From IMG/VR virus record IMGVR_UViG_3300029736_000004: DNA of 64,000 bases, one strand, 5' to 3'. The stretch is from a virus. Lineage: Duplodnaviria > Heunggongvirae > Uroviricota > Caudoviricetes. The position numbers and the translations under genes are program-made. The notes under the pieces were generated by a model, which ran no database searches, had not been told where the DNA came from, and worked only from the letters and a program-made list of their open reading frames with translations. How positions within the stretch are numbered: position 1 is the stretch's first letter; each line of letters opens with the position of its first letter. Below are positions 38,070 to 61,419 of the stretch, piece by piece.

Positions 38070-38776
38070 TGGATATCTGCATTCTCGAAAAGCCATCAAT
38101 GACAAGCATTGAGATCGCGGAGCTGGTGGGAAAACGTCATGACAATGTGAAACGCACTATTGAGACATTAGCCAAAGGTGGCGTTATTGTTCGTCCTCAA
38201 ATTGAGGTTTTCGAAAAAATCAATAACTTAGGACTACGACGTAGTGTTGAGGCTTACGTCTTCGAAGGCGAGCAAGGCAAGCGCGATAGCATTATCGTCG
38301 TCGCGCAGCTCTCTCCCGAATTCACCGCCCGGCTGGTGGACCGCTGGCGCGAACTGGAAGAACAAGTACGCCAGCCGTTGACCGAAATAGAGATGATCGC
38401 TGCAATGGCTGCAAATGCAGTTCAGCAGCAAAAGCGGCTTCATGTTGTTGAGTCAAAGGTTAGCCAGGTTGCTGAAACCGTCGAGCAGATCAAGAAAGGC
38501 AATATTCCGGAAGGCTACATTGGCTATCGCCAGTTGGCGGCAAAATGCGGCCTGACTGAAGCCAAATGCCGCAACCTGGTCAACGCTTACCGGATACCCA
38601 CTGATACGCATGAGTTTTTGACGCCAGAGGGGGTATTGTCGCGTCGTACTATTGTGGCCTTATCTCCCTTCATGAATGCCTTTACCCTGATGATGTCGGA
38701 GGCTGAACACCGAGGAAAACGCTGGTATCACCCAAGGATGGGACAATTCCAGGTGATCGGTTGGGGAGGCGAGTGA
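38069..38776 (+). CDS. Rha-family phage regulatory protein / antirepressor-like
   Basis: N-terminus MTSIEIAELVGKRHDNVKRTIETL matches the Rha-domain signature. Confidence 0.6.
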   Translation: MDICILEKPSMTSIEIAELVGKRHDNVKRTIETLAKGGVIVRPQIEVFEKINNLGLRRSVEAYVFEGEQGKRDSIIVVAQLSPEFTARLVDRWRELEEQVRQPLTEIEMIAAMAANAVQQQKRLHVVESKVSQVAETVEQIKKGNIPEGYIGYRQLAAKCGLTEAKCRNLVNAYRIPTDTHEFLTPEGVLSRRTIVALSPFMNAFTLMMSEAEHRGKRWYHPRMGQFQVIGWGGE

Positions 38777-38973
38777 TGGACATCATGCAGGCGGTAAAAA
38801 AAATCAGGGAAGGACAGGCTGAAGTGTGCCGCCGTAAAGCATGGAGTGTTGGTATATGGATCTGGCCTGATAATTGCTCTACTACCGGATGGTTTTGTAT
38901 TAATGGATGCCAGATCCGGGAAGTCGATTTATCGATGGCGGATGCAGTCGGTAATGATTGGATCGTAACTTGA
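38776..38973 (+). CDS. small protein with W..G..V.RR..W and C-terminal DWIV signature
   Basis: 65 aa; GGGGAGG SD; start overlaps upstream stop; one of four paralogous domains in the window. Confidence 0.4.
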   Translation: MDIMQAVKKIREGQAEVCRRKAWSVGIWIWPDNCSTTGWFCINGCQIREVDLSMADAVGNDWIVT

Positions 38974-38982
38974 AGTGTGATG

Positions 38983-39005
38983 CCCCGGCCTGGCCGGGGC
39001 TTTTT
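38983..39005 (+). terminator. rho-independent terminator
   Basis: GCCCCGGCC-T-GGCCGGGGC hairpin followed by TTTTT. Confidence 0.6.
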
Positions 39006-39490
39006 CATGCCTCATTAGTTGAGGTTGCTGCGTCTCCGACAGGTAACAGAGCTGTATTGCGTGGTTCGCCAGCAGGCCAGCGATAGCCAGACACTCTTGA
39101 TGTTGGGAATGCGCGAATATTAACAGCATCCCCCTGGTTCCCACCCAAGACAAGCAGATCGCCATTGGCGCGGCGTCCGACAACAAAGCCTACATGCCCA
39201 CCGCCTGCGCGAGTAAATACAACGATACATCCGTATGCCGGTGTATCTAATTTCTCGCCCCAATCCAGATAGGATTTTGCCGACTCAAATCTTGTTGAGC
39301 GGATACCTACACGTTCCAGCATTGCACCAACAAATGCAGCGCACCACGGCGTTTCGTCGTCTTTAATTCCGCTGCGCTTAATATCCCGCCAGAACTGGAC
39401 GATCTCAGGATTGTGTTTCGCTCCTTTTATTTCGGTGACTCCAATATTTTTACGGGCCTCAATAAGCCAACGAGGTTCATTGTTTGCCAT
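39005..39490 (-). CDS. peptidoglycan hydrolase (CHAP/NlpC-P60-like, TIGR02594-type)
   Basis: 161 aa; conserved Cys (ETPWCAAFVG) and His (GGHVGFVVG) spaced as in cysteine-peptidase cell-wall hydrolases; GGGAGA SD. Confidence 0.45.
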   Translation of the reverse strand: MANNEPRWLIEARKNIGVTEIKGAKHNPEIVQFWRDIKRSGIKDDETPWCAAFVGAMLERVGIRSTRFESAKSYLDWGEKLDTPAYGCIVVFTRAGGGHVGFVVGRRANGDLLVLGGNQGDAVNIRAFPTSRVSGYRWPAGEPRNTALLPVGDAATSTNEA

Positions 39491-39627
39491 ATATTTCTCC
39501 CGGTCATGGGTTAATAAGTAGGCAAACTATGGTGAGTATATGATTTTGACGGTAGTATCGTTCATCCCTGAAAATAACATTCTCCATACCCTCTCAAACC
39601 GTACCGCTTAAGGCGGATTTAACGGTT

Positions 39628-42600
39628 TTGAGGGGGCTTCCTTTGGACAAAATAATTGATTCAATTAGCCAGGCCACCAGCATTGGGGCGCTGATTGAAA
39701 TTGTTAGTCGGTTGCATAAACCGCGAGCTGTAGTGACCTTTGGCGTTAAGAAAGTCGATGGCGTCAGTATTCAGAAAACACGCCGGGCAGCAAACAACGC
39801 CGCAGTAAATCTTCTTAATTCCCTTCCGCCTGGCTTCGATGGGGCGAAATTAACTGACGAACAGCGTCAGATTCTTGCCGGGTATACCGGTGAAGGCGGC
39901 CTGACAGATGGTGAGGGCAGCCAATACGAATACTATACGCCACAGTTTATGGCAGAAGGTATATGGGATCTCTTCGGCGACTACGGTATTGATAGCGGTC
40001 ACGTACTGGAACCGTCAGCAGGCACAGGTATTTTCCAGGAGACAAAACGGCAGGGCATGATAATGACCAGCGCCGAACTGTCTCCGATCTCCGGTCGAAT
40101 AAACCAGCTTTTGCACCCGGAAGATGATGTGAATATCGGGGCGTTTGAGGCGCTGGCGGCGAAAGATGCAATGTATGACCACGCAGTTGGTAACGTACCG
40201 TTTGGCGAAGGGCGTTCCGGCGTCGCCGGGCTTGATCCGGCATATGCAAACGAGAAGAACGTTGGCAATTATTTTGTGCTGCGCACGATCGACAAGGTTA
40301 AGCCTGGTGGACTAATTGTATTGGTGGTGCCGAATGGCATGACCGATGGTACGAAATACAAAAAATTGCGCGATAAAGTCAGCCGTAAAGCGGAATTTTT
40401 GGGCGCGCATCGTATGCCTTCTGGTACGTTCAGCGAATCCGGTACAGATACCGTGGTGGACGTATGGGTATTGCGTAAACACCCGGAAACCTTCCTGGAG
40501 ATGATCCCCGACACGGATGATGCAACGCTCAAATCGGCAAACGTCCTTTGGGATACCTTCCTCAAAGGGAAATGGTTTACAACCGAAGGGAAGCGATTTG
40601 TTTACGGCGACATGGAACGCACCAGCTTCCGCAATACCCTGGTGGTGAAAAAGGACGGTCGTGTATCCAATGAGTCGATGAAAACCGCGTTATCACGCCG
40701 CTTTGAAAGCCGTATTAATTGGGATTTGCTCGGAGTAACTACCCAGGCATGGCAGGGCGCAAAAGTAGGGGATAAGCGTCTTGTAGGCGGTATCTGGCAT
40801 GAGTTTGATGGCCTGAAATGGGTTAAGGACACGACAACCAAATCCTCCGCGCTTGATGTAAGTCGATATGGTGTTTCGACGTTTGGCGATCTGCAGATCG
40901 CGTTCCAGTCAACAAACGGGATTCTGGCTTTGTCATGGGACCAGATATCGGCGATCGCGTCCGACTATCCATCGGTTGTCAGTGATGAAGTGGCAGCAAT
41001 GATTCGCTTTGCTGGCAAACAGCGAGAAAAAGACAGGGAGCGCGTTATGCGCGGTGCACTGATAGGTCAGTTGATCAACAAGGCACTTGATTTGCGTAAC
41101 CTGGGGGGGAACGTTGATGACAAACTGGCAGATGCATCCCGCCTGGCGGCAGCAGAAGTTGCGAAGTATGGACCACCGCACGCGATTAAGCTGAATGGGC
41201 TTGCAGAAGCTGGAGCTAAAAACTGGATGACGTTCACTGGCAATGTGAAACAGGATGGTTCCACTTCTGACCTTCTGGCAGGGCGACTTGATGTAACGGA
41301 TGGTGCTGCCGGTATTGACTTTACACGTCCGGAACAAGTGATAGCACATCTTTTCAGTGATGTAGCCCTTAATCCTATAACGCTGGGCGACTTTCGTGAG
41401 GCGTTTGCTGGTGAACTGCCAGAGGACGACGACGCGGCCCTTGAATACCTGGCGAAATTTGATGATATCGCTATTGATGGGTATGGCTGCCTGCTGCCGA
41501 TGGACCGCGCCACCAGCGGCGATATTGCAACCAAAACAACATTGCTGGTGGGCTGGCGTGATGCGTCAACAGGTGAACAGAAAGCGAACTTTGAGCGTCA
41601 GTTGGCGAAAATCGAAGAGAAACGCATTTTCACGCCACTAAATAAAGTCACCGTTAATCTGAACGCCCGCTGGCTGGATCGCCGCTTGATAAAAGAGTTC
41701 CTGGCAGAGCAGGGCTATGACGAGTTTAAGTACACTGAACCTGATCTGAAGGTCGTCGATGGCATTCTGGTATCTCCGGACGATTACGAAGGTAAGGACG
41801 GGGTATTTACCGGCTATCAGCTACGAACCGTAAACGGCAAAAACGGGAATGAGTTCAAGAAGGCCAACAATAAAGACGGCTTCCTGAACCAGTTAGAAAA
41901 CTACCTGAACGGTGTTAAACCGCGTGGGCAGAACGCTAACGAGTACCTGGATAAAATTGCTCAACTGGAAGTTAGCTTTAACGACTGGTTACGCACCCAC
42001 CCGCAGGCGGATCAGATAGCCCGTGACTATAACGACGCATTCAATGGCTTCATTCCGTTCACGCACTCTAACGCACCGCTTGGCCTGGAAGGGATTAGTG
42101 GAAAGCGCATTCCTCTGACTTATCAGAATGAAGAAGTTCGTCGCTTGTCAGAAGATGGGCGCGGCATCATGGGATTTGGTACCGGGCTGGGTAAAACCAC
42201 GACCGCGCTTGCGCTTGAGGCGTATAACTTCGAAACAGGTCGTACTAAACGCACGTGTATTGTTGTTCCGAAGGCGGTTTATCAGAACTGGTATCACGAG
42301 GCACAGAGCTTCTACAGTGCTGATGCCTTCGCCAATATGATGTTTATCGGTCTGGATGAAGTTCGTGATGAAGACGGCAATATTCTGACCGCGCCGGTGC
42401 TTGATGAAAATGGCGAACCCCGCCTCGACAGTAACGGGCAGCCTCTTACCAGAAATGTTGTGAAAGAGTCCGCCAGCGCCGTTATCGTTCAGCGCATGAA
42501 CATGATCCCGTCGTCAAATTGGCGAACGGTCATCATGACAAAAGAACAATTCGCGTCTATCCCGCTACGAGAAAAAACCATCGAGGAGAACTCACAGCAA

Positions 42601-45600
42601 GCTGTCTTTAATGCTGTGGAAATGGGGCGTCTTGACCTGGCGTCTGGTAAACACCGTGATGCGCAGAAGAAGAACAAGATTAAGGATCAGGCCGCGAATA
42701 CCGGTACAACGAAGAAGCAGAATATCCCGTACTTTGAGGATATGAACTTCGATAGCGTGATTGCCGACGAGGGGCATAACTACCGCAACTCCTTTAATGC
42801 CGGGCGTGAAGCGGGACAACTGGCATATTTGCCTAACCCGGCAGTATCCAAGATGGCCCGCGACATGGCTGTAAAAGCTGCGTACATGATGAAACGCAAC
42901 AACGGGCGTGGTGTAGTCATGCTGACGGCAACTCCGCTGGTGAACAGTCCGATTGATGCCTTCAACATGCTGTCTACTGTCATTCCGCAGGAAGAGTGGA
43001 TGCGCATGGGCATTATTACGCCGGATGATTTCGTTCGCGTGTTCGGCAAAACAGCCACAGTTCAGGTTCAGAAAATTTCCGGTGAGGTGGAAGAGAAGCA
43101 GGGGCTGGTGGGCTTCCAGAACCTTGATGGTCTGCGTGGTATTTTCCACCGTTGGACCACTCTGAAGACTGCCGCAGATGTCGGAGCGACGGTTAAAATT
43201 CCCGACATCATCGAGAACACCTTGCAGATCCCGATGACAGGGGAGCAGGAGGCTGCTTATGAAGAGCTTCGTAAGCGTGCTCAGGAGTTAAGTCGCAATG
43301 ATGAGCTGACAGTCGATGAAAACGGGCATATCACTAACGACAAACCGGATGATTTCATCTTCTCCATCATCCGCGACATGGATAAGGTTGCTATAGATCC
43401 GGATCTGTATGCCAGTGCGATTACATTCCAGTTCCCCGTTGAGCTTGCAGACAAGGTAAAAGCTATTGCGGATGCCCTGCCAAAAGTCGCAGGCGGTAAA
43501 GTGGCAGATGATGCAGACGAGGCCGAAGAAGACGGCGCTGGTGGACTGGTCAGTACGCGTACCAGCAAGGTAGTGAAGACCACCTTTAGTGAACATCCGG
43601 CGCATGTTGAAATACGCGCCAGCATTGAACTGGAAGCTGAAATACTGAAGGCCATTGCTGCCGCCGGGATTGATCTGCAGCAGGTATCACACCCCATCCC
43701 GCCGAAGTATGCCGCGCTGATCGAAAACCTTCGTGAAGGTTTGAAGAACGGTAAACAAATTGTCTTCATTGATGAAAAAGCCCAGCACCAGAAGCTGCGC
43801 CGTATTATCGCCAGTGCACTGCAAATGCCGGAGCAGGAGATAGGCATTATCAATGCGACGACCGTTAGCCAGGCTGGCGGCATCAAGCTGAAGAAGGTGA
43901 ATAAGCCGACTGAACCTACTCCGAATAAAAACGGTGAATACAAAGAAGGGGCATGGGAAACCTACTACAGCAAACTTGCCCAATATGAGGATTATCTCTC
44001 AGCTAAAAATGATGCTGGCCTTGAGGGTATGGAAGGCATTGCCGCCGACTATAACGAAGGGCGCACGCGCATCATTATCTGTAACAAGAAGGCTGAAGTA
44101 GGTATTAACCTGCATATCGGGACAACCGATATCCACCACCTGACACTACCCTGGACACCAGCCAGTATCGACCAACGAAATGGGCGCGGTGCGCGCGTAG
44201 GTTCACCGCAAGAGAAGGTCAATGTTCACTACTATTGTGGCAAAGGCACATTCGACGACTTCCGTCTGGATACGCTGAAACGTAAGAAAGACTGGATCAA
44301 GATGGTGATGACCTCCGACATGTCAGAGATCGCCAATGGTGATGCGGATGATGCTGATGAACGCGCCATTATGCTGGCGGCAAACCCGGAAGAACGCCGC
44401 GCAATCATGGCTCGCCAGGCGCAAGAGCGCGAAGAACGTCTGAAACTGAAAGCACAGCGCGAGGCCAACAATGCTCTCGATATCTACCTGAAAGCGGCAA
44501 ACGCCGCTGGAAAAGATATCGGCATGATGGAGACAGAACTGAAAAGCGCGATGGAACAGATAGAGTATTACCAGCGAAATCTTGACGACCTGATAAAAGC
44601 GGGTACGAACAGGAATGGGCAAAAATTCGCGCTTGAGCAGTTGAGTAGCTACAGAAAACGTGCGCGGGTGCTGCGGTTTGCGATCACCAGGGCAAAAGAC
44701 GCGGATACCATAATGAAACGCTCTCGTGGTGATGTGGAGCGAGCTATTAAGTCTGGTGTGCTGGATATCAGTATCGATGTTATTCAGAACCCACAGGAAT
44801 ATATGCGCACTGACAAGAATATCCTGTTGCATAAAGGTAGTTATTACCGTGCAGTCATTGATGATCGCGAAACAACAGCGATTGTCCGGGTGGAAAAAAT
44901 TGACGGTGAAAAAGCACAATACCTCTGCCGTATCGCCTGGCTGGATAGAGCAAGTCGTTACGCTCGATCACCGGGGTCAATCGTTACATTGCCGTTTGAC
45001 TCTGTGATTGAAGCGGTAACTTTTGAAGAGGGGGTAGCTGAATCGCGCGCAACGGCTGCGCGTGGTGTTCAGTGCCACCAGCTATCAACAATACTTACTC
45101 GCGATCAGTTCTATGATGCTATTCGCAATGGGGTAATGAATGTTATTGCTGGTAAACCTGGTAATGCATGGGGCGGTGGGTCAGCTATTAAATACTGGGC
45201 ATATCGCACAGATGATGGTCAGATCGCGCTGTCATCGGCCTATGATGGCGTGATAGGCCAAAAAATCGGGCGAGCATCGGATATAGCACCTGAACGATGG
45301 ATATATCCAGATGGCAACGATGAGGCGCTGAAGCGTGAAGTGGCAAAAATACAAGCCAGTGATAACCCGCTGAATATCGTGGACGGCGAGGGATTCCTCC
45401 AGGCATTGTATGGGTATGATTACATCCAGGGAATGCAGGCATGGGGCGCACAGGCAACGATGGATGATGTTGTCCAGGAGTTCGAAAACTGGATGGCTGG
45501 GCGTGGTCTGTCAGGTCGTTCGCTTAATAAAGTCACTTCTGAAGATATTCTTAGCTTGTTCCGCAAACCGTCCGGAGAAGGTCTGGAATCATTCTGGAGG

Positions 45601-46479
45601 ACCGTGCTGGCATACCGTTTATTCAAGGGCAGAATGAAAGCCTTTAGCAATATCGATGATATTGAACGGATGTTTAATCAGGTCAAGATCGCGAAAATTA
45701 AGACGAAGATCGAAAAAACACGTTCTGCGCTGGTGGCCTGGCGCGATGCATTGTTTGAGCAATATAAATCACTCAGTGATGCAGATGGATGGGCGGCATT
45801 GGAACAGTTGGCGAATAATGGGGTAGATGGAGCGAAACTCGCCATAGTCCAGGCTGATAACCCCCTGGAATCACCGGCAGCACAGTGGATTAAGGTGGGG
45901 GCTGTCATCAATGCATTTGATGAAAAACACATTAGTAAGGACGATTTTGCTGATGCTGTTTCTGTTAATCGCCTGGTAGAAATGGCTACCCGCCGCGCCC
46001 GTGAGTTGAAAGACGGTGACTATGTGAATGAGTTGCCGGATGCGCTCAAATCAGCAACGTGGCAAGACTATGTATCGCTGAAAAACGGCGGGGCCACCGA
46101 ATCAGAGATCGCGGAAAGGCTTGAACAGGCTGAAAGCAAAAGAGAAGAGCAGGCGGCAGTGGCTGAAGCCAGAGCTGATGAAGCGGCGAATGATGACTAT
46201 ATCATTGTGGTTAATGATAAGCCGATTCGCGCTAAGGCGCGTGTTCGCGGGCGCTGGTGGAGTGTCAGCGAGGACGTCGGTGCGGTTTATCTCATTGCCG
46301 ACCAACCTGGTTCCTCGACAATACGGAACGCCAAAGACGCGATTAAGAAGATTGGCGGGCGTTTCTGGAATTTTGAAGCAAACCCGGTTGCTGATGTGAA
46401 CTTTGACCGTCCGGCATGGATGGTATCTACGCGTTACTCGGTAGATGAACTGCGTAAAATAATCGCCGATGCGGCCTAA
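39628..46479 (+). CDS. DarB-like N6-adenine methyltransferase / SF2 helicase fusion
   Basis: 2283 aa; MTase motifs EPSAGTGIF and GNVPFGEG; helicase Walker A GFGTGLGKTT, DEGH box, motif VI QRNGRGARVG; start may be TTG 39628 or 39643. Confidence 0.7.
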   Translation: MRGLPLDKIIDSISQATSIGALIEIVSRLHKPRAVVTFGVKKVDGVSIQKTRRAANNAAVNLLNSLPPGFDGAKLTDEQRQILAGYTGEGGLTDGEGSQYEYYTPQFMAEGIWDLFGDYGIDSGHVLEPSAGTGIFQETKRQGMIMTSAELSPISGRINQLLHPEDDVNIGAFEALAAKDAMYDHAVGNVPFGEGRSGVAGLDPAYANEKNVGNYFVLRTIDKVKPGGLIVLVVPNGMTDGTKYKKLRDKVSRKAEFLGAHRMPSGTFSESGTDTVVDVWVLRKHPETFLEMIPDTDDATLKSANVLWDTFLKGKWFTTEGKRFVYGDMERTSFRNTLVVKKDGRVSNESMKTALSRRFESRINWDLLGVTTQAWQGAKVGDKRLVGGIWHEFDGLKWVKDTTTKSSALDVSRYGVSTFGDLQIAFQSTNGILALSWDQISAIASDYPSVVSDEVAAMIRFAGKQREKDRERVMRGALIGQLINKALDLRNLGGNVDDKLADASRLAAAEVAKYGPPHAIKLNGLAEAGAKNWMTFTGNVKQDGSTSDLLAGRLDVTDGAAGIDFTRPEQVIAHLFSDVALNPITLGDFREAFAGELPEDDDAALEYLAKFDDIAIDGYGCLLPMDRATSGDIATKTTLLVGWRDASTGEQKANFERQLAKIEEKRIFTPLNKVTVNLNARWLDRRLIKEFLAEQGYDEFKYTEPDLKVVDGILVSPDDYEGKDGVFTGYQLRTVNGKNGNEFKKANNKDGFLNQLENYLNGVKPRGQNANEYLDKIAQLEVSFNDWLRTHPQADQIARDYNDAFNGFIPFTHSNAPLGLEGISGKRIPLTYQNEEVRRLSEDGRGIMGFGTGLGKTTTALALEAYNFETGRTKRTCIVVPKAVYQNWYHEAQSFYSADAFANMMFIGLDEVRDEDGNILTAPVLDENGEPRLDSNGQPLTRNVVKESASAVIVQRMNMIPSSNWRTVIMTKEQFASIPLREKTIEENSQQAVFNAVEMGRLDLASGKHRDAQKKNKIKDQAANTGTTKKQNIPYFEDMNFDSVIADEGHNYRNSFNAGREAGQLAYLPNPAVSKMARDMAVKAAYMMKRNNGRGVVMLTATPLVNSPIDAFNMLSTVIPQEEWMRMGIITPDDFVRVFGKTATVQVQKISGEVEEKQGLVGFQNLDGLRGIFHRWTTLKTAADVGATVKIPDIIENTLQIPMTGEQEAAYEELRKRAQELSRNDELTVDENGHITNDKPDDFIFSIIRDMDKVAIDPDLYASAITFQFPVELADKVKAIADALPKVAGGKVADDADEAEEDGAGGLVSTRTSKVVKTTFSEHPAHVEIRASIELEAEILKAIAAAGIDLQQVSHPIPPKYAALIENLREGLKNGKQIVFIDEKAQHQKLRRIIASALQMPEQEIGIINATTVSQAGGIKLKKVNKPTEPTPNKNGEYKEGAWETYYSKLAQYEDYLSAKNDAGLEGMEGIAADYNEGRTRIIICNKKAEVGINLHIGTTDIHHLTLPWTPASIDQRNGRGARVGSPQEKVNVHYYCGKGTFDDFRLDTLKRKKDWIKMVMTSDMSEIANGDADDADERAIMLAANPEERRAIMARQAQEREERLKLKAQREANNALDIYLKAANAAGKDIGMMETELKSAMEQIEYYQRNLDDLIKAGTNRNGQKFALEQLSSYRKRARVLRFAITRAKDADTIMKRSRGDVERAIKSGVLDISIDVIQNPQEYMRTDKNILLHKGSYYRAVIDDRETTAIVRVEKIDGEKAQYLCRIAWLDRASRYARSPGSIVTLPFDSVIEAVTFEEGVAESRATAARGVQCHQLSTILTRDQFYDAIRNGVMNVIAGKPGNAWGGGSAIKYWAYRTDDGQIALSSAYDGVIGQKIGRASDIAPERWIYPDGNDEALKREVAKIQASDNPLNIVDGEGFLQALYGYDYIQGMQAWGAQATMDDVVQEFENWMAGRGLSGRSLNKVTSEDILSLFRKPSGEGLESFWRTVLAYRLFKGRMKAFSNIDDIERMFNQVKIAKIKTKIEKTRSALVAWRDALFEQYKSLSDADGWAALEQLANNGVDGAKLAIVQADNPLESPAAQWIKVGAVINAFDEKHISKDDFADAVSVNRLVEMATRRARELKDGDYVNELPDALKSATWQDYVSLKNGGATESEIAERLEQAESKREEQAAVAEARADEAANDDYIIVVNDKPIRAKARVRGRWWSVSEDVGAVYLIADQPGSSTIRNAKDAIKKIGGRFWNFEANPVADVNFDRPAWMVSTRYSVDELRKIIADAA

Positions 46480-47860: not shown

Positions 47861-48061
47861 TTGCGTTTACTTAACGTGGCTGAACTTATCCCTGCCGGTG
47901 CTAACGTTGTTGCTCGTCGCTGCTCATGGCCTCATTCTTTCTGTATAGAGCTTAAAAAGATGGATGATGGGGCATTAGAAGCCCGAAACATAGTTACCGG
48001 CGACAAGGTATGCATTACCCCGGAAAGCGCGAAAGCCAATGATTGGGAGTTTGTTCATTGA
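47861..48061 (+). CDS. small protein with W-domain signature (AGANVVARRCSW ... NDWEFV)
   Basis: 66 aa; paralogous to 38776-38973. Confidence 0.35.
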   Translation: MRLLNVAELIPAGANVVARRCSWPHSFCIELKKMDDGALEARNIVTGDKVCITPESAKANDWEFVH

Positions 48062-51034: not shown

Positions 51035-51111
51035 GATGGTGTAGCTCAGTAGGATAGAGCAGCAGCCTTCTAAGCTGTCGGTCGGTGGTTCGAATCCACC
51101 CACCATCGCCA
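51035..51111 (+). tRNA. tRNA-Arg (anticodon TCT)
   Basis: Cloverleaf: acceptor GATGGTG/CACCATC, D-arm TAGCTCAGTAGGATAGAGC, anticodon loop CTTCTAA, T-arm GGTGGTTCGAATCCACC, CCA end. Confidence 0.85.
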
Positions 51112-51116
51112 ATTTA

Positions 51117-51203
51117 GGGGAGTTAGTCCGTAGGGGTAGCGGGGTAGACTGTAAATCTACTGTCATTGCGACTCGGATGGTTCGACTCCATCACTCCCCA
51201 CCA
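51117..51203 (+). tRNA. tRNA-Tyr (anticodon GTA)
   Basis: Acceptor GGGGAGT/ACTCCCC, anticodon stem-loop GTAGA-CTGTAAA-TCTAC, long variable arm, T-loop TTCGACT, CCA. Confidence 0.8.
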
Positions 51204-51207
51204 AATT

Positions 51208-51283
51208 GCCGGTTTAGCTCAGTTGGTAGAGCAGTCGCTTTGTAAGCGAATGGTCAGCGGTTCGATCCCGTTAACCGGCACCA
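51208..51283 (+). tRNA. tRNA-Thr (anticodon TGT)
   Basis: Acceptor GCCGGTT/AACCGGC, D-arm GCTCAGTTGGTAGAGC, anticodon loop TTTGTAA, T-loop TTCGATC, CCA. Confidence 0.8.
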
Positions 51284-51296
51284 ACACAACAGGTAA

Positions 51297-51361
51297 GGGT
51301 ATTTTGCGACATCGGAGATCGCCGAGCTTGGCAGAGGGTTCGAATCCCTACGAAGTACCCT
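51297..51361 (+). other. tRNA-like element lacking a canonical anticodon arm (possible degenerate tRNA)
   Basis: Acceptor-like GGGTATT/AGTACCC, D-arm-like GCGA...TCGC, T-arm GAGGGTTCGAATCCCTA, but only 11 nt between D and T arms; extended outer stem CACAACAGGTAAGGG/CCCTTGCCGTTGTG. Confidence 0.25.
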
Positions 51362-51471
51362 TGCCGTTGTGATGAATGCACAGGCTGATGTGCCGCAACT
51401 ACAGTAGTGCGCGCTTTGCGGGGCTTGCTACAACCCTGTGTCGGAGTTCAGCACCGACCATCACAATCACT

Positions 51472-51558
51472 GGAGAGTAGGGAGCATGGTGCTCAAGCGG
51501 TCTTGAAAACCGTCCCATTGCGCAAGCGATGATGGTTCGATTCCATTACTCTCCGCCA
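51472..51558 (+). tRNA. tRNA-Ser (anticodon TGA)
   Basis: Acceptor GGAGAGT/ACTCTCC, anticodon stem-loop GCGGT-CTTGAAA-ACCGT, long variable arm, T-arm GATGGTTCGATTCCATT, CCA. Confidence 0.8.
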
Positions 51559-51849
51559 GCGCAACGTTAAGAGTATTTGGCTAATTAAGCGAATGCCGGA
51601 AGCAGAACCGGATCACCAAATGCGTACAGGCGTCATCGCCGCCCAGTCAGCCAAATGCTCTTACCATTGCGGTGAATGCGGCTAAGCGCACGCGGAACAG
51701 TTAAAACAGTAAAGGTGGTCTTTTTACTGGCGTAACGAGCATCCATAAGTGATCCGGCGTTAATTGTTAACTGGTTAACGTCACCGGGAGGCACCCGGCA
51801 CCGCAACCTAACAGCAATGGCGTTTTGTCTTAAAAGGTGGCTGCAAGTG

Positions 51850-51978
51850 ATGGATTTTTGGGCGTTTGCCGATAAAAACCCGGAGTGGACATTATTGTTT
51901 CTGCTGGTGGTTGCATACGGGGTAGAGCAAGCGGCAAAAGCCTTACGCGGTTCTGGCAAAAAGCGTAAGCGTAATTAA
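51850..51978 (+). CDS. small hydrophobic ORF (42 aa) between tRNA genes
   Basis: MDFWAFADKNPEWTLLFLLVVAYGVEQAAKALRGSGKKRKRN; not in the ORF track (under 60 aa); AAAGGTGG upstream. Confidence 0.25.
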   Translation: MDFWAFADKNPEWTLLFLLVVAYGVEQAAKALRGSGKKRKRN

Positions 51979-51987
51979 CAGTAATCT

Positions 51988-52063
51988 GGCCCTTTAGCTC
52001 AGTGGTTAGAGCGGGCGACTCATAATCGCACGGTCACCGGTTCAAGTCCGGTAGGGGCCACCA
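51988..52063 (+). tRNA. tRNA-Ile2-like (anticodon CAT; Met not excluded)
   Basis: GGCCCTTTAGCTCAGTGGTTAGAGCGGGCGACTCATAATCGC...GGTTCAAGTCCGGTAGGGGCCACCA closely resembles E. coli ileX-type tRNA (recalled). Confidence 0.8.
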
Positions 52064-52517: not shown

Positions 52518-53093
52518 ATGTTAACGGCGAACGATAACGCGTATTCAGAAGATGATCTCGTTTTGAGTGACTTTATAGGGCGACGAGAATGCTGGACGCA
52601 AAAGCGCGAGGAGCTTTATGCAGCGTTAGTTCGTAAAGGCGTCAACATCGAAACCGCACAGAACGGTGATATGACAGTGGTAAGTGTTGGACTGCACGGC
52701 GTAAGCGTGTCAGCAATCAATCATGAGCCGTACATTGCGTTATCCGAGTCAATGGTAAGGTTAGTTAAGTTCCTGAAGTACACAGAAGCGAATAACGTGC
52801 TCATCGCCAAAAAGAACATCCCGTTCTCATCGGCCTTTTACTGGATGATGAAGGGGCTTGATGCCCGGCGAACATCATGGCCTAAAGGGAGCTATATATC
52901 GATGCTCCGTGGCAGTGTTGGCAGCAAAGAAAAGCTCGTCGAATTCCTGCCGGAAGAGGCATTCGATATTGTTGAAGGTTGTGATGTGATGGTTATGCCT
53001 CGCCTGGTAATGATGAATGGGGATTTACAGGCACAGACAGACTGGTTTGCAACTGGTGTTGATATTATCGCTACTGACTGGGAGGTTTTTTGA
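52518..53093 (+). CDS. hypothetical protein with C-terminal W-domain (FYWMMKGLDARRTSW ... TDWEVF)
   Basis: 191 aa; GGAGAC SD; same signature as 38776, 47861 and 60733 proteins. Confidence 0.45.
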   Translation: MLTANDNAYSEDDLVLSDFIGRRECWTQKREELYAALVRKGVNIETAQNGDMTVVSVGLHGVSVSAINHEPYIALSESMVRLVKFLKYTEANNVLIAKKNIPFSSAFYWMMKGLDARRTSWPKGSYISMLRGSVGSKEKLVEFLPEEAFDIVEGCDVMVMPRLVMMNGDLQAQTDWFATGVDIIATDWEVF

Positions 53094-55334: not shown

Positions 55335-56842
55335 TGGCTGGTGGTCGTAAGATTAAGTGCGTCACCAGTGATCCACGTTGGCGCGATATGGTTATCAGGT
55401 ATCGATACAACTTTACCCAGGCGGTTGTCGATATTTTTGGGATGTTCCCCTCCCATCAGCAGCAGCAGATCATTCAGTCAGTGCAGGAGACGGGGAGCAG
55501 GACGACCGTTACGTCCGGACACGGAACGGGTAAGTCATCCCTTACCGCGATGTTGCTACTAATTTTTATGATCCTGTTCCCCGACGCCCGCGTCATTATT
55601 GTTGCGAACAAAATAGGCCAGGTAAAAACAGGCGTATTCAAATACGTGAAACAGTTTTGGGCGAATGCTGTTAAGCGCCACGGCTGGTTACAGACCTATT
55701 TTGTCCTGTCTGACACCATGTTTTATGAGCGTTCCCGTAAAGGGATATGGGAAGTGCTCTGTAAAGGTTATCGACTCGGTAACGAAGAGGCACTGGCGGG
55801 GGAGCACGCGGAGCATTTACTGCTAATCCTTGATGAAGCATCGGGCATATCCGATAAGGCGATTAACGTCATGACGGGGGCGTTAACGCAGAAAGATAAC
55901 CGTATGCTCATGCTTTCCCAGCCTACGCGTCCAAGCGGTTACTTTTATGAATCCCACCATTCAAGGGCAAAGGCAGAAGGCAATCCGGAAGGAGTCTGGA
56001 CGGCAATAGTCCTTAACTCTGAAGAATCTCCATTCGTTGAACCGAGCTTTATTCGTGAGAAATTGCTGGAGTACGGCGGCAGGGATTCGCTGGAGTACAT
56101 GGTTAAGGTGCTGGGCCAGTTCCCGCGTGCAATTAACGGGTATTTGCTTGGTCGTGATGAGTGCGACCGCGCCGCACGGCGTAAAGTGTTGCTGGAGAAA
56201 GATTGGGGCTGGGTAGCGACCGCTGACGTCGGTAATGGTCGCGACAAATCGGTGCTCAATATATGCAAAGTATCCGGTTATCGTGAGAAACGACGCGTTG
56301 TGAACTTTAAGATACTGGAGATGCCAGGCACTATGGACCCGTTGGCTTTTGCCGACTTTATCTATAACGAATGCACTCCTGATAAATACCCGAACATCAC
56401 CATTGCTGTGGATGCTGATGGCTTTGGTTCAGATACGTGTGCGCAGCTTGTCCGCCGTGGTGCTAATCCCGTTCGCATCCGTTGGGGTAAGCCTATGTTT
56501 GCGCTAAGAGACAGAGAACGCTTTGTCAATCAGCGTGCTTACGCCAATATTATGGCAGGGGATGCCATTAAATCAGGGCGTATGCGTATCGATAGTGACC
56601 CCAAAACCGCAGATCAGGCATCAAAAATCCCGTATATGCTTAACGAAGAAGGGAAGGTAGCGATGATGCGCAAGGAGCACATGCGGCAGAAGTTAAACAT
56701 CAAGTCGCCGGACAGATGGGATACCTACTGCTTCACTATGCTGGTGGATTACGTGCCTGCTAATGAAGACATTGGCGCAGAACTCGCAACATTCCGCGAT
56801 CAGGTGTTGGCAGAAGTGGATATTCCTGATATTGACATTTAA
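55334..56842 (+). CDS. pacB: terminase large subunit (PacB-like)
   Basis: Walker A SGHGTGKS, Walker B LLLILDEA, C-terminal nuclease-like acidic residues; GGAGGA SD. Confidence 0.75.
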   Translation: MAGGRKIKCVTSDPRWRDMVIRYRYNFTQAVVDIFGMFPSHQQQQIIQSVQETGSRTTVTSGHGTGKSSLTAMLLLIFMILFPDARVIIVANKIGQVKTGVFKYVKQFWANAVKRHGWLQTYFVLSDTMFYERSRKGIWEVLCKGYRLGNEEALAGEHAEHLLLILDEASGISDKAINVMTGALTQKDNRMLMLSQPTRPSGYFYESHHSRAKAEGNPEGVWTAIVLNSEESPFVEPSFIREKLLEYGGRDSLEYMVKVLGQFPRAINGYLLGRDECDRAARRKVLLEKDWGWVATADVGNGRDKSVLNICKVSGYREKRRVVNFKILEMPGTMDPLAFADFIYNECTPDKYPNITIAVDADGFGSDTCAQLVRRGANPVRIRWGKPMFALRDRERFVNQRAYANIMAGDAIKSGRMRIDSDPKTADQASKIPYMLNEEGKVAMMRKEHMRQKLNIKSPDRWDTYCFTMLVDYVPANEDIGAELATFRDQVLAEVDIPDIDI

Positions 56843-56843
56843 A

Positions 56844-56870
56844 AGCCCCGGCGATTCGGGGCTTGTGGGT
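56844..56870 (+). terminator. terminator-like hairpin between convergent pacB and c1 candidate
   Basis: AGCCCCG-GCGATT-CGGGGCT hairpin. Confidence 0.4.
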
Positions 56871-56879
56871 GGTTTGCGA

Positions 56880-57917
56880 TTACCAGAGTTTTGCCGCGTA
56901 CATCGTTTGTGTGAATGTGTACCCATAGCGTTCTTCAACGCTTTTACCGTATTTTTTCCTGGCTTCAGTAAGGCGGATGCCTGTCAGGTCATCGCCGGAG
57001 GCAATCATAACTTCCAGTAGTTCCAGGTCCATTTTATCCAGCCTTGCCATTGCATCTTTAGCCTCTTGAATTTTCCGGCTAACGATCTGGTGTATGGCTG
57101 GATCGGCTTCGGCCAGCATTTTATCTGATTTGTTTTTTAAACTCTGATTGCGGATATCAATGTTTCTCAGGATATATGACTTCACGACATAGCTTGGCTG
57201 CTGCTTTTCCAGATCACGAACCCGATAAAGGTCAAATTCGCCGAGAAGTCCGCACGGAAGCGGTTTAATGCCAGTGTAAATGGTAAGGGTACGGCGCTCA
57301 CCAACGTTGTTAACAACGGGAATCTCTGTGTTTGCTTTTCTTGCAAAGATCAGCGCACCGTGCGCACCCACTCGGAAGCGTGAAAGTCCATTGTTGCCCT
57401 CGATATTGGTGGTAATCACCACATCGGTATAACCTTCTTTTCTTGCGCGGTATACCTCGCCCTCACGTTCAGCGGCGAAGAATCTGCGTTCTTCTTCAAG
57501 CGCACCGACAACCTGTGAAAATATCCTGTTTTTCATGCTTTTCTTTATAGTTTTATCGTATTTTTTCAGCAGGTCTTCGCGCGTAAATGTTCTCGTTGTG
57601 GTTGCGCTTTGCATAACGATATGCGTACTCTGATTAGTATCCTCAACAATGAATGGGATCGGTAAATAAACCGACTCAACAATGTTTGAGGCTTTGTCAT
57701 CATCCTTGCGACACAGATCAACAAAGGCTTTCCATTCGGCTATGCATTTTTCAGCTTCTTCTAATACAGCCGGATCATGTGTTAATGCAACATGGCGAAA
57801 TTCCTCGCCAACATAACTGGTATCATGGAAAACAGAGTTTGCGACCACCAGCTCTTTCCACCGTTCGGCGGTTTGCAGGAACCGTTTGTACTCATTCTCG
57901 ATCGACTTCTTACTCAT
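56880..57917 (-). CDS. candidate immunity repressor (c1 position)
   Basis: 345 aa between pacB and the rox-like site, as c1 lies in P1-family pac-c1 regions; operator-like sites at 57936-57946 and 58021-58030 in its upstream region. Confidence 0.35.
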   Translation of the reverse strand: MSKKSIENEYKRFLQTAERWKELVVANSVFHDTSYVGEEFRHVALTHDPAVLEEAEKCIAEWKAFVDLCRKDDDKASNIVESVYLPIPFIVEDTNQSTHIVMQSATTTRTFTREDLLKKYDKTIKKSMKNRIFSQVVGALEEERRFFAAEREGEVYRARKEGYTDVVITTNIEGNNGLSRFRVGAHGALIFARKANTEIPVVNNVGERRTLTIYTGIKPLPCGLLGEFDLYRVRDLEKQQPSYVVKSYILRNIDIRNQSLKNKSDKMLAEADPAIHQIVSRKIQEAKDAMARLDKMDLELLEVMIASGDDLTGIRLTEARKKYGKSVEERYGYTFTQTMYAAKLW

Positions 57918-57931
57918 TATTCCTACTCGAT

Positions 57932-57946
57932 TTAGTTTTCTAACAT
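57932..57946. promoter_or_regulatory. operator-like site (TTAGTTTTCTAACAT)
   Basis: 15 bp upstream of the c1-candidate start; variant ATTAGAAAAT at 58021-58030. Confidence 0.45.
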
Positions 57947-58102
57947 AAAAGTCCTGTGACAAATTTATGCTGAATAACAAGGTGAGTAAAGGATAAAACC
58001 GCTTTTTTTTGATTGTTCCTATTAGAAAATGTAGCCAGGAACGGCTACCGCATGGCTGACGGATTTGCGAAGTGATCTGGTCGGTGTTTTTTTGGGAAAA
58101 AA

Positions 58103-58134
58103 GCCCCGATTCCAACTTTAAATAATTGGCATTA
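58103..58134. other. rox-like site-specific recombination site
   Basis: CAACTTTAAATAAT-TGGC-ATTATTTAAAGTTA: 14-bp inverted arms with 4-bp spacer; 31/32 identical to the reverse complement of the D6 rox site as I recall it. Confidence 0.65.
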
Positions 58135-58296
58135 TTTAAAGTTAGGCTATAATCTCCAGTAAACAGGTAGTATTGACAAGGATGAAAAATCATGCCTCGA
58201 ATCAAAGGCTTGAATTTTGAAAATTAACTTATAACTACCCTGTCAGTTTTCTATTTTTCATGTAGCGTTATCTGTATATAGAGGTTTAATAGTTTC

Positions 58297-59325
58297 ATGG
58301 GTGAACTAGTTATCTCCGGCGGTTCTGGTGGTTTTCTGCGCGATATTGGCACCGAATACCAGGAAGCTGCAAAAAACTTTATGCAGTTCATGAACGACCA
58401 GGGAGCTTATGCCCCAAATACGCTTCGAGATCTCCGTCTGGTGTTTCATTCCTGGGCGCGGTGGTGTAACTCGCGCCAGCGCCCCTGGTTCCCGATTACG
58501 CCGGAAATGGCCCGCGAGTATCTTCTCCAGTTGCATGAGGCCGATCTGGCTTCGACCACCATTGATAAGCACTATGCCATGCTTAACATGCTGCTTTCGC
58601 AATGTGGCCTCCCGCCGCTCTCGGACGATAAAAGTGTGTCTCTGGCCATGCGGCGCATCCGGCGCGAAGCGGCAACGGAAAAAGGCGAGCGAACAGGCCA
58701 GGCTATACCGTTGCGGTGGGATGATCTGAAATTGCTCGACGTGTTGCTGTCCCGTTCCGAGCGGCTGGTGGACCTGCGCAATCGGGCGTTTCTCTTCGTG
58801 GCATACAATACCCTGATGCGTATGTCAGAAATCTCGCGCATCCGCGTCGGAGATCTGGAACAAACAGGTGACACTGTAACGCTGCATATTTCACACACGA
58901 AGACCATCACGACCGCCGCCGGACTTGATAAGGTGCTTTCTCGTTACACTACCGCCGTACTGAACGACTGGCTGGAGGTGTCCGGACTTCGAGAACATCC
59001 GGACGCGGTGCTATTCCCGCCAATACACCGCAGTAATAAGGCCAGAATCACGACAACGCCCCTTACTGCACCTGCAATGGAGAAAATATTCAGCGATGCC
59101 TGGGGGTTGCTGAACAAACGAGATGCCACGCCGAACAAAGGAAGATACCGGACGTGGACAGGCCATAGTGCGCGTGTTGGTGCGGCAATTGATATGGCTG
59201 AGAAACAGGTGTCAATGGTCGAGATCATGCAGGAAGGCACATGGAAAAAGCCCGAAACACTTATGCGATATTTGCGCCGTAGCGGGGCATCCGTTGGTGC
59301 AAATAGTCGCCTGATGGATTCATAA
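58297..59325 (+). CDS. dre: Cre-family tyrosine recombinase (Dre-like)
   Basis: WARWCNSRQRPWFPITPEMAREYLLQL...LPPLSDDKSVSLAMRRIRRE aligns with Cre WAAWCKLNNRKWFPAEPEDVRDYLLYL...SNAVSLVMRRIRKE; C-terminal WTGHSARVGAAIDMA catalytic region; rox-like site 160 bp upstream. Confidence 0.7.
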   Translation: MGELVISGGSGGFLRDIGTEYQEAAKNFMQFMNDQGAYAPNTLRDLRLVFHSWARWCNSRQRPWFPITPEMAREYLLQLHEADLASTTIDKHYAMLNMLLSQCGLPPLSDDKSVSLAMRRIRREAATEKGERTGQAIPLRWDDLKLLDVLLSRSERLVDLRNRAFLFVAYNTLMRMSEISRIRVGDLEQTGDTVTLHISHTKTITTAAGLDKVLSRYTTAVLNDWLEVSGLREHPDAVLFPPIHRSNKARITTTPLTAPAMEKIFSDAWGLLNKRDATPNKGRYRTWTGHSARVGAAIDMAEKQVSMVEIMQEGTWKKPETLMRYLRRSGASVGANSRLMDS

Positions 59326-59326
59326 A

Positions 59327-59340
59327 TTAATTTTCTAACA
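59327..59340. promoter_or_regulatory. operator-like site (TTAATTTTCTAACA)
   Basis: Perfect reverse-orientation 14-mer just after the dre stop. Confidence 0.45.
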
Positions 59341-59397
59341 ATCTTTTTAGACAGTGCATTTTAATGTAAAGTACCCTCGCCTATTGCGGAGGGTACT

Positions 59398-59742
59398 TTG
59401 CACAATCGTATTACGGAATCAAAACGCTTCACTGTTGACGGTTACACCATAACCTTCACTGCGGGCGTTAAGCGCGACCAGGCGGTCGTGGTGTTCGGTG
59501 TTATGACCGGACTTGATGCCGTTCCCGTATTTACCCTCGAAAAAAACTGGCGAAATCTGGAGGAAGCTGAACGCTACGTCCGGAAAGTAACCGTCATTGC
59601 TGCTGAAAAACTCCTGGCCCACTATCAGGAAAATTATCGCGCTATGACCGAGAAAATTAACCATGTTTTCACTCGCCCCACCAGCGGCTTCATTGCCCCT
59701 GATGCGAATGCCGGGCGCTATCCGGCAAGGGGGCGCAAATGA
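59398..59742 (+). CDS. hypothetical protein
   Basis: 114-aa ORF. Confidence 0.45.
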   Translation: MHNRITESKRFTVDGYTITFTAGVKRDQAVVVFGVMTGLDAVPVFTLEKNWRNLEEAERYVRKVTVIAAEKLLAHYQENYRAMTEKINHVFTRPTSGFIAPDANAGRYPARGRK

Positions 59743-60227
59743 AAACTTACTACCCATCTCTGAACTGCTATCCAACCACTAATCCTGAGCTGTCAGGGAA
59801 ACTTCTGTCCCTCCTGGCTGATAGTCCTGATGAATGGCATAAGCCTGGTGATATCAACACACAGTTCCCTGAGTACGGGTGTATCCGCACCCGAAATGAG
59901 CTGAAGAACCTCATTGCTCACGGTTTTGTCCGTCACCGTAGCGGGAAAGGCTATCAGTTGGCTATCCCACAAGGAGAGGCAAGAGAACTCTTTGGCTATC
60001 GAGAAAGCCAGACGCAAGCGCGGGTGATCGCAGAAATTATCCGTAATGGCAGCGTCTATGCCCGCAAATTCTGGCTGTCTGGCGGTGGCGATGCATCACA
60101 GTTCTTGCGTGCTGTGCGATCGCTGGAGGAACAAGGTGTAATCGAGAATACCTGCGTCTCCGTTCCGACCGCTCCGCATATCAAACGCCGGATTTATACA
60201 TTTACCCGGAGAGCTAAAAAGCAATGA
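59739..60227 (+). CDS. hypothetical protein
   Basis: 162-aa ORF overlapping neighbours by 4 nt. Confidence 0.45.
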   Translation: MKTYYPSLNCYPTTNPELSGKLLSLLADSPDEWHKPGDINTQFPEYGCIRTRNELKNLIAHGFVRHRSGKGYQLAIPQGEARELFGYRESQTQARVIAEIIRNGSVYARKFWLSGGGDASQFLRAVRSLEEQGVIENTCVSVPTAPHIKRRIYTFTRRAKKQ

Positions 60228-60718
60228 TTAACGTGAAAGTGAAACGCCTTCATCCGGCGGCAAAACTCCCCGTTTACGCCACCGCCGGATCGGCGGCGAT
60301 GGATTTTGTTGCTGTTGAAATAACGCCTGGTATCGATAGCAATGGCGCTATTTCCTCAAGCTGGTGGGTGCATACCGGCCTCGCTATGGCGATCCCTCCT
60401 GGCTGGTGTCTGAAACTTTATCCTCGTTCCGGATTGGGCTGCAAAAAGCATACGCGCCTGGCTAACTGCGTAGGAATTATCGACGCCGATTATCGCGGTG
60501 AAATCATGGCAAAACTGATTACAGATCCTGGTGGTGAAGGTGTTTGCCTCAAGCCTGGAATGGCGGTCATGCAAGGCATTTTTGAGCGTGTTGAACCGGT
60601 ATCGCTGGTAGAAGTTGATGAACTCGATGAAACAGAGCGAGGTGCTGGTGGCTTTGGTAGCACATCGGAAGACCGCATTGAAATCAAGCGTACACCGCTT
60701 CAGTACGAAAAGTTTTAA
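60224..60718 (+). CDS. dut: dUTP diphosphatase (dUTPase)
   Basis: dUTPase motifs AGSAAMD, GIIDADYRGEI and RGAGGFGSTS. Confidence 0.75.
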   Translation: MINVKVKRLHPAAKLPVYATAGSAAMDFVAVEITPGIDSNGAISSSWWVHTGLAMAIPPGWCLKLYPRSGLGCKKHTRLANCVGIIDADYRGEIMAKLITDPGGEGVCLKPGMAVMQGIFERVEPVSLVEVDELDETERGAGGFGSTSEDRIEIKRTPLQYEKF

Positions 60719-60732
60719 GTAGAGGAAAGATT

Positions 60733-61419
60733 ATGGCCAGCACTTTTCAGGTGTTCCCCAAATACAAAAGCCACAGCATCATTCGGGCATCGAAAATCAA
60801 AGATATTGTTATTGTCGGCGAAGCTTATGCGCCCATTTTTGGCAGTATCGAAGTCGTGGAGCCAAAAGGAATGACGCTTCGTGTTGATGGTGTGTTCTTG
60901 GAAAAATTCCGACCGCAAATAGGAGGATATCTCGTCACTGCTGAAAATGGCTATCTGGTCTATGTGCCAGAGAAAGCATTTGAAAAATGCTATAGCCGGG
61001 TTAACGACGCCTCCGAAAATGGGGTATCGCTCAGCATTGAAGGTCACAATGGGGTGACATTCATTACAGCCAGGGACGTAACTATTTCTGCAGGCGGTAT
61101 CGCTACTCTACAAGAAGAAATCGACCTTGAAGCAGCCGACTTTTCTGACGCGCTGATGTGGCTGAAGGATGGCAAGAAAGTTGCCCGGCGCGGGTGGAAT
61201 GGCGAAAACCAATTCTGCTGGCTGGTTCCAGACAAACAGGGCGCTTCAAGACTAACCCCTATAAAACATGCCATCAATGGAGAGCTTGAAATCAATTTCG
61301 ACTCTCCTCTTGCTCCTTATGGTACGCATTTCGCTTTGAAAAATGCACAAGGTGTAGTTGTTCCGTGGGTGCCTTCAGTTGGCGACCTGCTGGCCTGTGA
61401 CTGGTTTGTTGTGGAGTGA
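60733..61419 (+). CDS. hypothetical protein with C-terminal W-domain (MWLKDGKKVARRGW ... CDWFVVE)
   Basis: 228 aa; C-terminal domain shares the signature of three other proteins in the window. Confidence 0.45.
   Translation: MASTFQVFPKYKSHSIIRASKIKDIVIVGEAYAPIFGSIEVVEPKGMTLRVDGVFLEKFRPQIGGYLVTAENGYLVYVPEKAFEKCYSRVNDASENGVSLSIEGHNGVTFITARDVTISAGGIATLQEEIDLEAADFSDALMWLKDGKKVARRGWNGENQFCWLVPDKQGASRLTPIKHAINGELEINFDSPLAPYGTHFALKNAQGVVVPWVPSVGDLLACDWFVVE

Follow-up and report, generated by a model that had tools for sequence, protein, structure and literature searches.

Tad2-family domains in a D6-like phage-plasmid: a canonical copy, a divergent copy and two probable minimal relatives

Introduction

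Tad2 (Thoeris anti-defence 2) is a tetrameric sponge protein (bioRxiv 10.1101/2023.05.01.538930). The characterised set comprises SPO1 gp34.65, ModTad2, SptTad2 and HgmTad2/AcrIIA7. The fold displays an N-terminal helix, a five-stranded antiparallel sheet and a short helix before the last strand, and the assembly is a homotetramer of two V-shaped dimers. This report concerns four open reading frames, termed p1 to p4, in a 64,000-nucleotide (nt) stretch of viral DNA (IMG/VR record IMGVR_UViG_3300029736_000004), which is called the window throughout. Its gene order and nucleotide identities mark the window as D6-like, within the P1 family of E. coli phage-plasmids.

The ligands of Tad2 proteins are diverse. 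In SPO1 Tad2 the pocket lies between two protomers of the homotetramer, and 1''-3' gcADPR is held there by W25 and W73 with contributions from N26, S76, T78 and D79 (bioRxiv 10.1101/2023.05.01.538930). Tad2 also has a second pocket for cyclic dinucleotides, which in HgmTad2 is formed by the beta2-beta3 insertion (10.1101/2023.11.15.567273). ModTad2 binds His-ADPR, the signal of type II Thoeris (10.1101/2024.01.03.573942), and its second pocket takes cUMP/cCMP; the family also covers N7-cADPR (10.1101/2025.08.24.671296). Other homologs bind 3'cADPR, N7-cADPR or cGG/cGAMP (10.1101/2023.11.15.567273; 10.1101/2025.08.24.671296). Taken together, Tad2 homologs counter Thoeris of types I, II and IV as well as CBASS and Pycsar (bioRxiv 10.1101/2025.08.24.671296).

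A 2025 survey puts the prevalence of "Tad2 AcrIIA7 (anti-Thoeris)" at 93% for D6-like phage-plasmids and 56% for P1-like ones (bioRxiv 10.1101/2025.09.12.675607). The presence of Tad2 in D6-like elements is thus already published, as this survey reports it there and RefSeq names the p4 homolog "DUF2829 domain-containing protein". For the same reason the finding is less new than an earlier reading of the window, made from its letters alone (the sequence-only reading), would suggest.

The interpretation favored here, at a probability of about 70%, is that the D6-like element carries a set of Tad2-family proteins in which p4 would be a canonical sponge, p3 a second and divergent sponge, and p1 and p2 minimal relatives. 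The four open reading frames are the following (aa, amino acids).

38776–38973, plus strand: p1, 65 aa; probable minimal Tad2-like protein; last gene of the icd-ant (immI-like) operon
47861–48061, plus strand: p2, 66 aa, TTG start; probable minimal Tad2-like protein; between the VRR-NUC (pmgM-like) and pmgR-like genes
52518–53093, plus strand: p3, 191 aa; between the tRNA cluster and lpa-pacAB
60733–61419, plus strand: p4, 228 aa; between dut and the IsaA-like gene

The canonical domain of p4

The p4 sequence displays an N-terminal domain at about residues 1–95 (phrog_11049), a linker, and a C-terminal Tad2 domain at residues 136–228 (nt 61138–61416). The sequence-only reading had suggested a DUF2829-type domain, and this is correct. 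In Pfam, DUF2829 is entry PF11195, since renamed "Tad2-like" (Thoeris anti-defence 2-like domain). Its gathering score of 25 bits is exceeded by p4 at residues 136–227 (E-value = 1e-21, 77.7 bits) and by p3 at residues 103–190 (E-value = 4.4e-10, 40.4 bits).

A phmmer search of PDB with p4 finds ModTad2 (9eib/8v3e, E-value = 3e-13), SptTad2 (8e-9), SPO1 Tad2 (2e-7) and HgmTad2/AcrIIA7 (7e-7), i.e. five sequences of solved Tad2 proteins with E-values from 3e-13 to 7e-7. ModTad2 is the closest solved relative. Residues 136–228 of p4 align end to end with the solved chains, with about 40% identity to ModTad2 and about 39% to SPO1 Tad2, and p4 shares with these proteins the GWN loop and the W-x-P-S-x-x-D helix, which are elements of the gcADPR pocket. 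Both p4 and p3 fall in phrog_872 and phrog_1048, as do the validated Tad2 proteins. By these alignments p4 is an unambiguous Tad2 and the assignment is secure. An anti-defence role, which the sequence-only reading had raised as something to test, is reasonable in that the family includes experimentally characterised Thoeris signal sponges (bioRxiv 10.1101/2023.05.01.538930).

The match of p4 to the AcrIIA7/HgmTad2 chains 8kbi and 9kzr (E-value about 1e-6) may also be read in another way, namely that the domains in the window act as anti-CRISPRs, like the DUF2829 protein AcrIIA7. However the anti-Cas9 activity of AcrIIA7 was irreproducible in vitro and in vivo, and the protein has been reassigned as a gcADPR/cGG sponge (bioRxiv 10.1101/2023.11.15.567273). 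An anti-CRISPR function is accordingly given very little credence.

The characterised Tad2 proteins are stand-alone and about 90–105 aa in length, whereas in p4 and p3 the domain follows an N-terminal extension, of about 135 and 100 aa, respectively. Among the relatives of p4 the partner modules are many and varied, at the N terminus as well as at the C terminus. The earlier description of the domain as occurring "free and fused" is thus a reasonable one, and judged by these architectures the Tad2 domain shuffles freely between partner modules.

Several features of p4 relatives are recorded here. In some, the order is Tad2 domain first, then a crAss001_48-related domain (PF21825) at the C terminus; others have quite different N-terminal extensions. 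The beta2-beta3 insertion of p4 (DKQGASRLTPIKHAINGELEINFDSPLAPYGTH) is longer than and different from that of SJ46-type proteins (EGQYPARMEAIKGYFPGDLVPYGAY).

Identity of p4 with P1 IsaA was considered and rejected; the homolog of P1 IsaA is the next gene in the window, at positions 61426–62223. In the P1 record AF234173.1 (region 7570–10133) a Tad2 domain is absent from IsaA and IsaB alike. Disruption of a Tad2 gene by IS1 in P1 was likewise rejected, as the ssb-isaA-IS1-isaB region of AF234173.1 encodes no Tad2 domain. In SJ46 (region 2806–4440) a protein of 281 aa with a Tad2 domain is encoded between ssb and the gene named "isaA". A Tad2 gene is thus found here in SJ46 and none in the above region of AF234173.1, which shows the gene to be variable among P1-like elements and fits the reported 56% prevalence.

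The divergent domain of p3

The p3 sequence consists of an N-terminal domain and a divergent C-terminal Tad2-like domain at about residues 100–191 (nt 52815–53090). Alignment of the p3 family with the Tad2 alignment by hhalign gives P = 3.1e-9 (probability 96%, 83 columns). The family alignment contains three members. One is a syntenic homolog of 44% identity, from a phage-plasmid of the Enterobacter type, and it keeps the two pocket tryptophans and the aspartate. A hidden Markov model (HMM) of the p4 family finds p3 in the window at an E-value of 4.7e-5. As a single sequence p3 displays weak similarity to SptTad2 in a search of PDB (E-value = 0.54). The profile match is significant. Proline replaces the pocket residue Asn26 in p3. 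On the strength of the profile comparisons p3 is a divergent but secure member of Tad2.

At residues 20–26 of the p3 N-terminal domain (nt 52575–52595) there is a second RR..W-like motif, GRRECW, which scores 2.3 bits with the p2-family HMM and is probably due to chance.

The p3 homolog has a different name in the databases. Positions 15515–16090 of NZ_LR890273.1, a plasmid with 98.7% identity, correspond to window positions 52518–53093 and are annotated in RefSeq (and PLSDB) as "MW1434 family type I TA system toxin", i.e. the toxin of a toxin-antitoxin pair. If the name were right, p3 would be a type I toxin. However MW1434 itself is a prophage protein of 81 aa, and PMC6266405, the one paper in the searched library to name it, places it among type I toxins of S. 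aureus that were predicted by computation. The p3 protein is 191 aa long, has a secure Tad2 domain and has no NCBIfam or PADLOC match; the same two collections give no match for p1, p2 or p4. Inspection of the p3 sequence by eye shows no obvious hydrophobic segment of transmembrane length, such as a small membrane-active toxic peptide under the control of an antisense RNA would have. The MW1434 label is unfit because p3 is a 191-aa Tad2-domain protein, and it is probably a mis-annotation that has spread; that p3 is a type I toxin is scarcely credible.

A pattern shared by the four proteins

The four open reading frames were originally brought together by a signature, W-x2-G-x2-V-x-RR-x-W followed by a C-terminal DW motif. 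Their starts and lengths and the peptide strings quoted for them are all present in the window. A pattern common to all four does exist, but not in the exact form first written. The leading W is found only in the 191- and 228-aa proteins, and the spacing RR-x-W is that of the 228-aa protein, the other three having RR-xx-W.

A six-frame translation of the window gives 1128 open reading frames of at least 30 aa. Exactly four of them, p1, p2, p3 and p4, contain the loose pattern RR.{1,2}W.{25,95}DW, and residue shuffles give a mean of 0.13 matches and a maximum of 2 (500 shuffles). A stricter pattern, with an upstream G and a C-terminal DW.[VF], is found in none of 500 shuffles. The pattern was defined after the data had been seen and the shuffle figures are therefore generous; the significance is overstated, although the enrichment is still real.

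Three HMMs, built from the p4 clade, the p2 family, and p1 plus p2, detect no fifth copy in the window. The open reading frame at 27685–28182 has DWNV at its end but not the N-terminal motif, and those at 19131–19301 and 58394–58726 display only the N-terminal motif, which occurs at chance frequency. These three were rejected as further copies.

The proposal that the four are copies of one domain is firm for p3 and p4. It is less so for p1, which lies below the Pfam threshold, and for p2, which has no Pfam match. The term "paralogous" does not here mean recent duplication: the copies are about 15%–25% identical and lie in different PHROG families. Single-sequence pairwise comparison of p1–p4 within the window gives nothing significant (phmmer E-values of at least 0.9, tblastn of at least 0.1), and kinship among the four is visible only at the profile level. 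Since pairwise similarity is at chance level, the relation among the four, whatever its nature, is old.

The small proteins p1 and p2

The sequences of p1 and p2 are related to each other. Alignment of p1 with the p2 family by hhalign is gapless over 64 columns (P = 3.8e-5, probability 71%). In a search of the 1128 open reading frames with the p2-family HMM, p1 ranks second (E-value = 0.0022) and p3 third (E-value = 0.016).

Whether these two proteins belong with Tad2 has to be weighed against the alternative that only p3 and p4 are Tad2 and that p1 and p2 are an unrelated small SH3-like pair, with a likeness in RR..W and DW that arose by chance or convergence. Several observations speak against such an unrelated pair. 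The p2-family HMM was built without p1 or p3, yet exactly these two are its best non-self matches, and the enrichment of the RR..W/DW motif in the window points the same way.

In addition, among the weak Pfam and PHROG matches of p1 and p2 only the Tad2-like family and phrog_643 recur. The p1 sequence matches PF11195 end to end (residues 1–64 with positions 1–72/73, E-value = 0.007), and PF11195 is the only Pfam family matched by more than one member of the p2 family (two of the 12, best E-value = 0.15). A weak match to 2C_adapt is also seen for one p2-family member. For the p1 and p2 families phrog_643, which has 84 positions and is labelled "transcriptional regulator", is the only foreign PHROG to recur. 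It is matched end to end by p1 (E-value = 0.0046), about as well as by SPO1 Tad2 (0.0037), and also by ModTad2 (3.2e-5), p4 (0.029) and three p2-family members (0.12). Validated Tad2 proteins are thus among the sequences that match it. Alignment of the p2 family with the p3 family by hhalign gives P = 0.0065.

When the p2 model is compared with BFVD the top match is A0A1L2CVD1, a protein of 66 aa from Pectobacterium phage CBB that is annotated as DUF2829 (E-value = 0.011, 26% identity), and a 65-aa Tad2-like protein is at rank 9. Short DUF2829 proteins, i.e. that of CBB and the 65-aa A0A8S5M8A0 of Siphoviridae sp., are of the same length class as p1 and p2. They differ in that p1 and p2 are below the Pfam threshold and have narrow PHROGs of their own (7385 and 7206). 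A further group for comparison, the SH3-like small beta-barrels, e.g. the DtxR/IdeR C-terminal domain, FeoA and Tudor/PWWP, gives no sequence signal and has neither the N-terminal helix motif G-x(3-5)-RR-x(1-2)-W nor the C-terminal DW motif.

A number of results count against membership of p1 and p2 in Tad2. Neither reaches the PF11195 gathering score (p1 has 17.3 bits and p2 no Pfam match). Alignment with the Tad2 alignment by hhalign gives P = 0.012 for p1 and 0.046 for p2, with probabilities of 1%–4%, and alignment of p1 with the p3 family gives P = 0.15. No Tad2 is found when PDB sequences are searched with p1, p2 or the 12-member p2-family profile, and Foldseek against PDB is non-significant for the link. 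The AlphaFold2 model of p1, made from a two-sequence alignment, has a pLDDT (predicted local distance difference test) of 51.5 and was not used. The equivalent of W73 is valine in both p1 and p2, and that of D79 is serine in p2.

The link of p1 and p2 to Tad2 is made by several signals, each of them weak, that agree with one another. On these p1 is likely to belong to the Tad2 superfamily, and p2 is also considered a likely member, although with somewhat less assurance. The unrelated SH3-like pair is the less likely explanation, but among the alternatives it is the one to be taken most seriously.

A separate question is posed by the position of p1. Its start codon ATG overlaps by one base the stop codon TGA of the gene immediately upstream:

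38069–38776, plus strand: Ant/Rha/Roi-like antirepressor gene (phrog_63 "anti-repressor Ant", E-value = 1.5e-48; Pfam Phage_pRha)

The arrangement is kept in D6. In phrog_63, which has 431 positions, Ant covers positions 127–358 and p1 covers positions 382–430, in the same order as in the genome. The placement of the two proteins on consecutive parts of phrog_63 is a hint of a split or once-fused arrangement, and p1 could then be a detached C-terminal module of the translationally coupled Ant/Rha antirepressor that acts in the immunity (immI-like) switch and is not a sponge. However the match of p1 to phrog_63 is weak (E-value = 0.0048). In 556 phage records the close homologs of Roi/Ant stop near residue 234 and have no p1-like extension, the p1 part is matched only by D6, and no Ant fused to a p1-like tail is present among these records. 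Also, the entire icd-ant-p1 block is absent from the Enterobacter-type relative. A detached antirepressor module is considered improbable.

Distribution and constraint of p1 and p2

The p1 sequence is found only in D6 and D6-like elements (85%–97% identity), whereas p2 is also found in related phage-plasmids of about 90 kb from enterobacteria. The p1 open reading frame is intact at 65 aa in all 21 of the IMG/VR D6-like loci from which it was extracted. The ratio of nonsynonymous to synonymous substitution rates (dN/dS) of p1 is 0.70 at low divergence, which indicates weak constraint. For p2 the ratio is 0.20, i.e. p2 is under purifying selection.

An exhaustive search of 1.84 billion representatives with the p2-family HMM gives seven clusters of 66–76 aa and three repeat-protein false positives only. 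Six of the clusters are diverged and come in addition to the D6-like elements; at least three of these are on contigs of about 86–90 kb, and the one examined has the same synteny. No intermediate between the p2 family and canonical Tad2 is found among the 1.84 billion representatives. All named members of the p1 and p2 families that were checked are annotated "hypothetical protein".

A Logan contig from SRR34892557 represents a more distant P1/D6-like element of the Enterobacter type. It encodes a p2 of 76 aa and a p3 of 191 aa (44% identity) in the same synteny. In this contig the CHAP hydrolase comes straight after RepL, and the icd-ant-p1 block is absent.

Pocket residues and possible mechanism

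The pocket residues of SPO1 Tad2 were placed on the four proteins by way of their alignments with Tad2. The equivalent residues are as follows.

p4: W25, W; N26, N; W73, W; S76, S; T78, G; D79, D
p3: W25, W; N26, P; W73, W; S76, T; T78, V; D79, D
p1: W25, W; N26, S; W73, V; S76, S; T78, A; D79, D
p2: W25, W; N26, P; W73, V; S76, T; T78, E; D79, S

All five canonical residues (W25, N26, W73, S76 and D79) are present in p4. They are partly present in p3, and p1 and p2 do not display the canonical set. By its residues p4 looks like a protein with a functional canonical pocket. By homology to Tad2 it would form a homotetramer, and its inter-protomer pockets would sequester an ADP-ribose-derived signal of Thoeris TIR proteins. 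The candidate ligands are 3'cADPR (i.e. 1''-3' gcADPR), His-ADPR and N7-cADPR, among which sequence cannot discriminate. With the signal sequestered the effector would not be triggered and Thoeris would be blocked.

The p3 protein keeps both tryptophans and the aspartate, and the phosphate-contacting asparagine is replaced by proline; it would most likely be a sponge with a shifted ligand preference. In HgmTad2, mutation of the asparagine equivalent to N26 jointly with the tryptophan leads to loss of binding (10.1101/2023.11.15.567273).

The p1 and p2 sequences have no beta2-beta3 insertion and no helix alpha2, which make up the V-shaped dimer interface of SPO1 Tad2. This argues against a Tad2-type assembly. 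Only helix alpha1 and the beta-barrel core appear to be present. The second pocket tryptophan is missing from both, and canonical binding of gcADPR is improbable for p1 and p2; they may bind another ligand or act through protein contacts.

A bolder proposal is that p1 and p2 form a minimal, previously unrecognised branch of the Tad2 superfamily, in which the canonical ADPR pocket has been lost together with the insert for dimerisation. D6-like elements would then have a sponge-like repertoire of four members in four operons, each tuned to a different immune signal, possibly including undiscovered ones. This is a speculative idea and is considered unlikely.

Genomic context

The window shows 80%–92% nucleotide identity to phage D6 in the stretches tested, and several plasmids of about 90 kb from E. 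coli and E. marmotae show 98%–99%. The gene order of D6 is kept, i.e. icd-ant, a CHAP/TIGR02594 hydrolase, darB (2283 aa), a ulx-like gene, a pmgM-like VRR-NUC gene and pmgR/S-like genes, then the tRNA cluster, lpa, pacA, pacB, c1, the Cre-like (Dre) recombinase, dut, the IsaA-like gene and phd/doc. The neighboring and accessory features are listed below.

39628–46479: DarB-like methyltransferase/helicase (anti-restriction), 2283 aa; accessory gene
51035–52063: tRNA cluster of five genes just upstream of p3 (Arg-TCT, Tyr-GTA, Thr-TGT, Ser-TGA and a CAT-anticodon tRNA)
58297–59325: Cre-like tyrosine recombinase (Dre of D6); accessory gene
60224–60718, plus strand: dUTPase gene (Pfam dUTPase, E-value = 7.3e-13; phrog_135), directly 5′ of p4 with a gap of 14 nt
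62304–62684, minus strand: doc toxin of the phd/doc pair; accessory gene

The equivalents of the CAT-anticodon tRNA, the last of its cluster, are annotated as Ile or Met in related phage records.

The four genes lie in four transcription contexts: immI-like (p1), the pmg cluster (p2), upstream of lpa (p3) and downstream of dut (p4). Each is preceded by a Shine-Dalgarno-like GGAG/AGGA sequence 7–9 nt 5′ of the open reading frame. The P1 C1 operator consensus has no match across the window. Three annotated P1 late promoters were used to derive a late-promoter pattern, and its single match is distant from p1–p4.

Significance

To what has been published on Tad2 in these elements the present comparison adds a little, in that each genome has two secure Tad2 domains with different pockets, each joined to a different N-terminal module. 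Two "hypothetical" proteins of 65–66 aa are probably minimal Tad2 relatives by their profile matches. Also new are the four-gene set as such and the correction of the RefSeq toxin label on the p3 homolog, which looks wrong. Database labels are thus corrected for p3 homologs (type I toxin) and for p1 and p2 ("hypothetical protein").

Phage-plasmids of the D6/P1 type are common in clinical E. coli, Shigella and Salmonella, and the four proteins are small and easily testable. ModTad2 has already served as a tool that revealed His-ADPR (10.1101/2024.01.03.573942), and on the bolder proposal above these proteins could in the same manner be used as bait for immune signals. Two differently tuned Tad2 domains together with two stripped-down relatives in one element would suggest diversification of sponges within a single genome.

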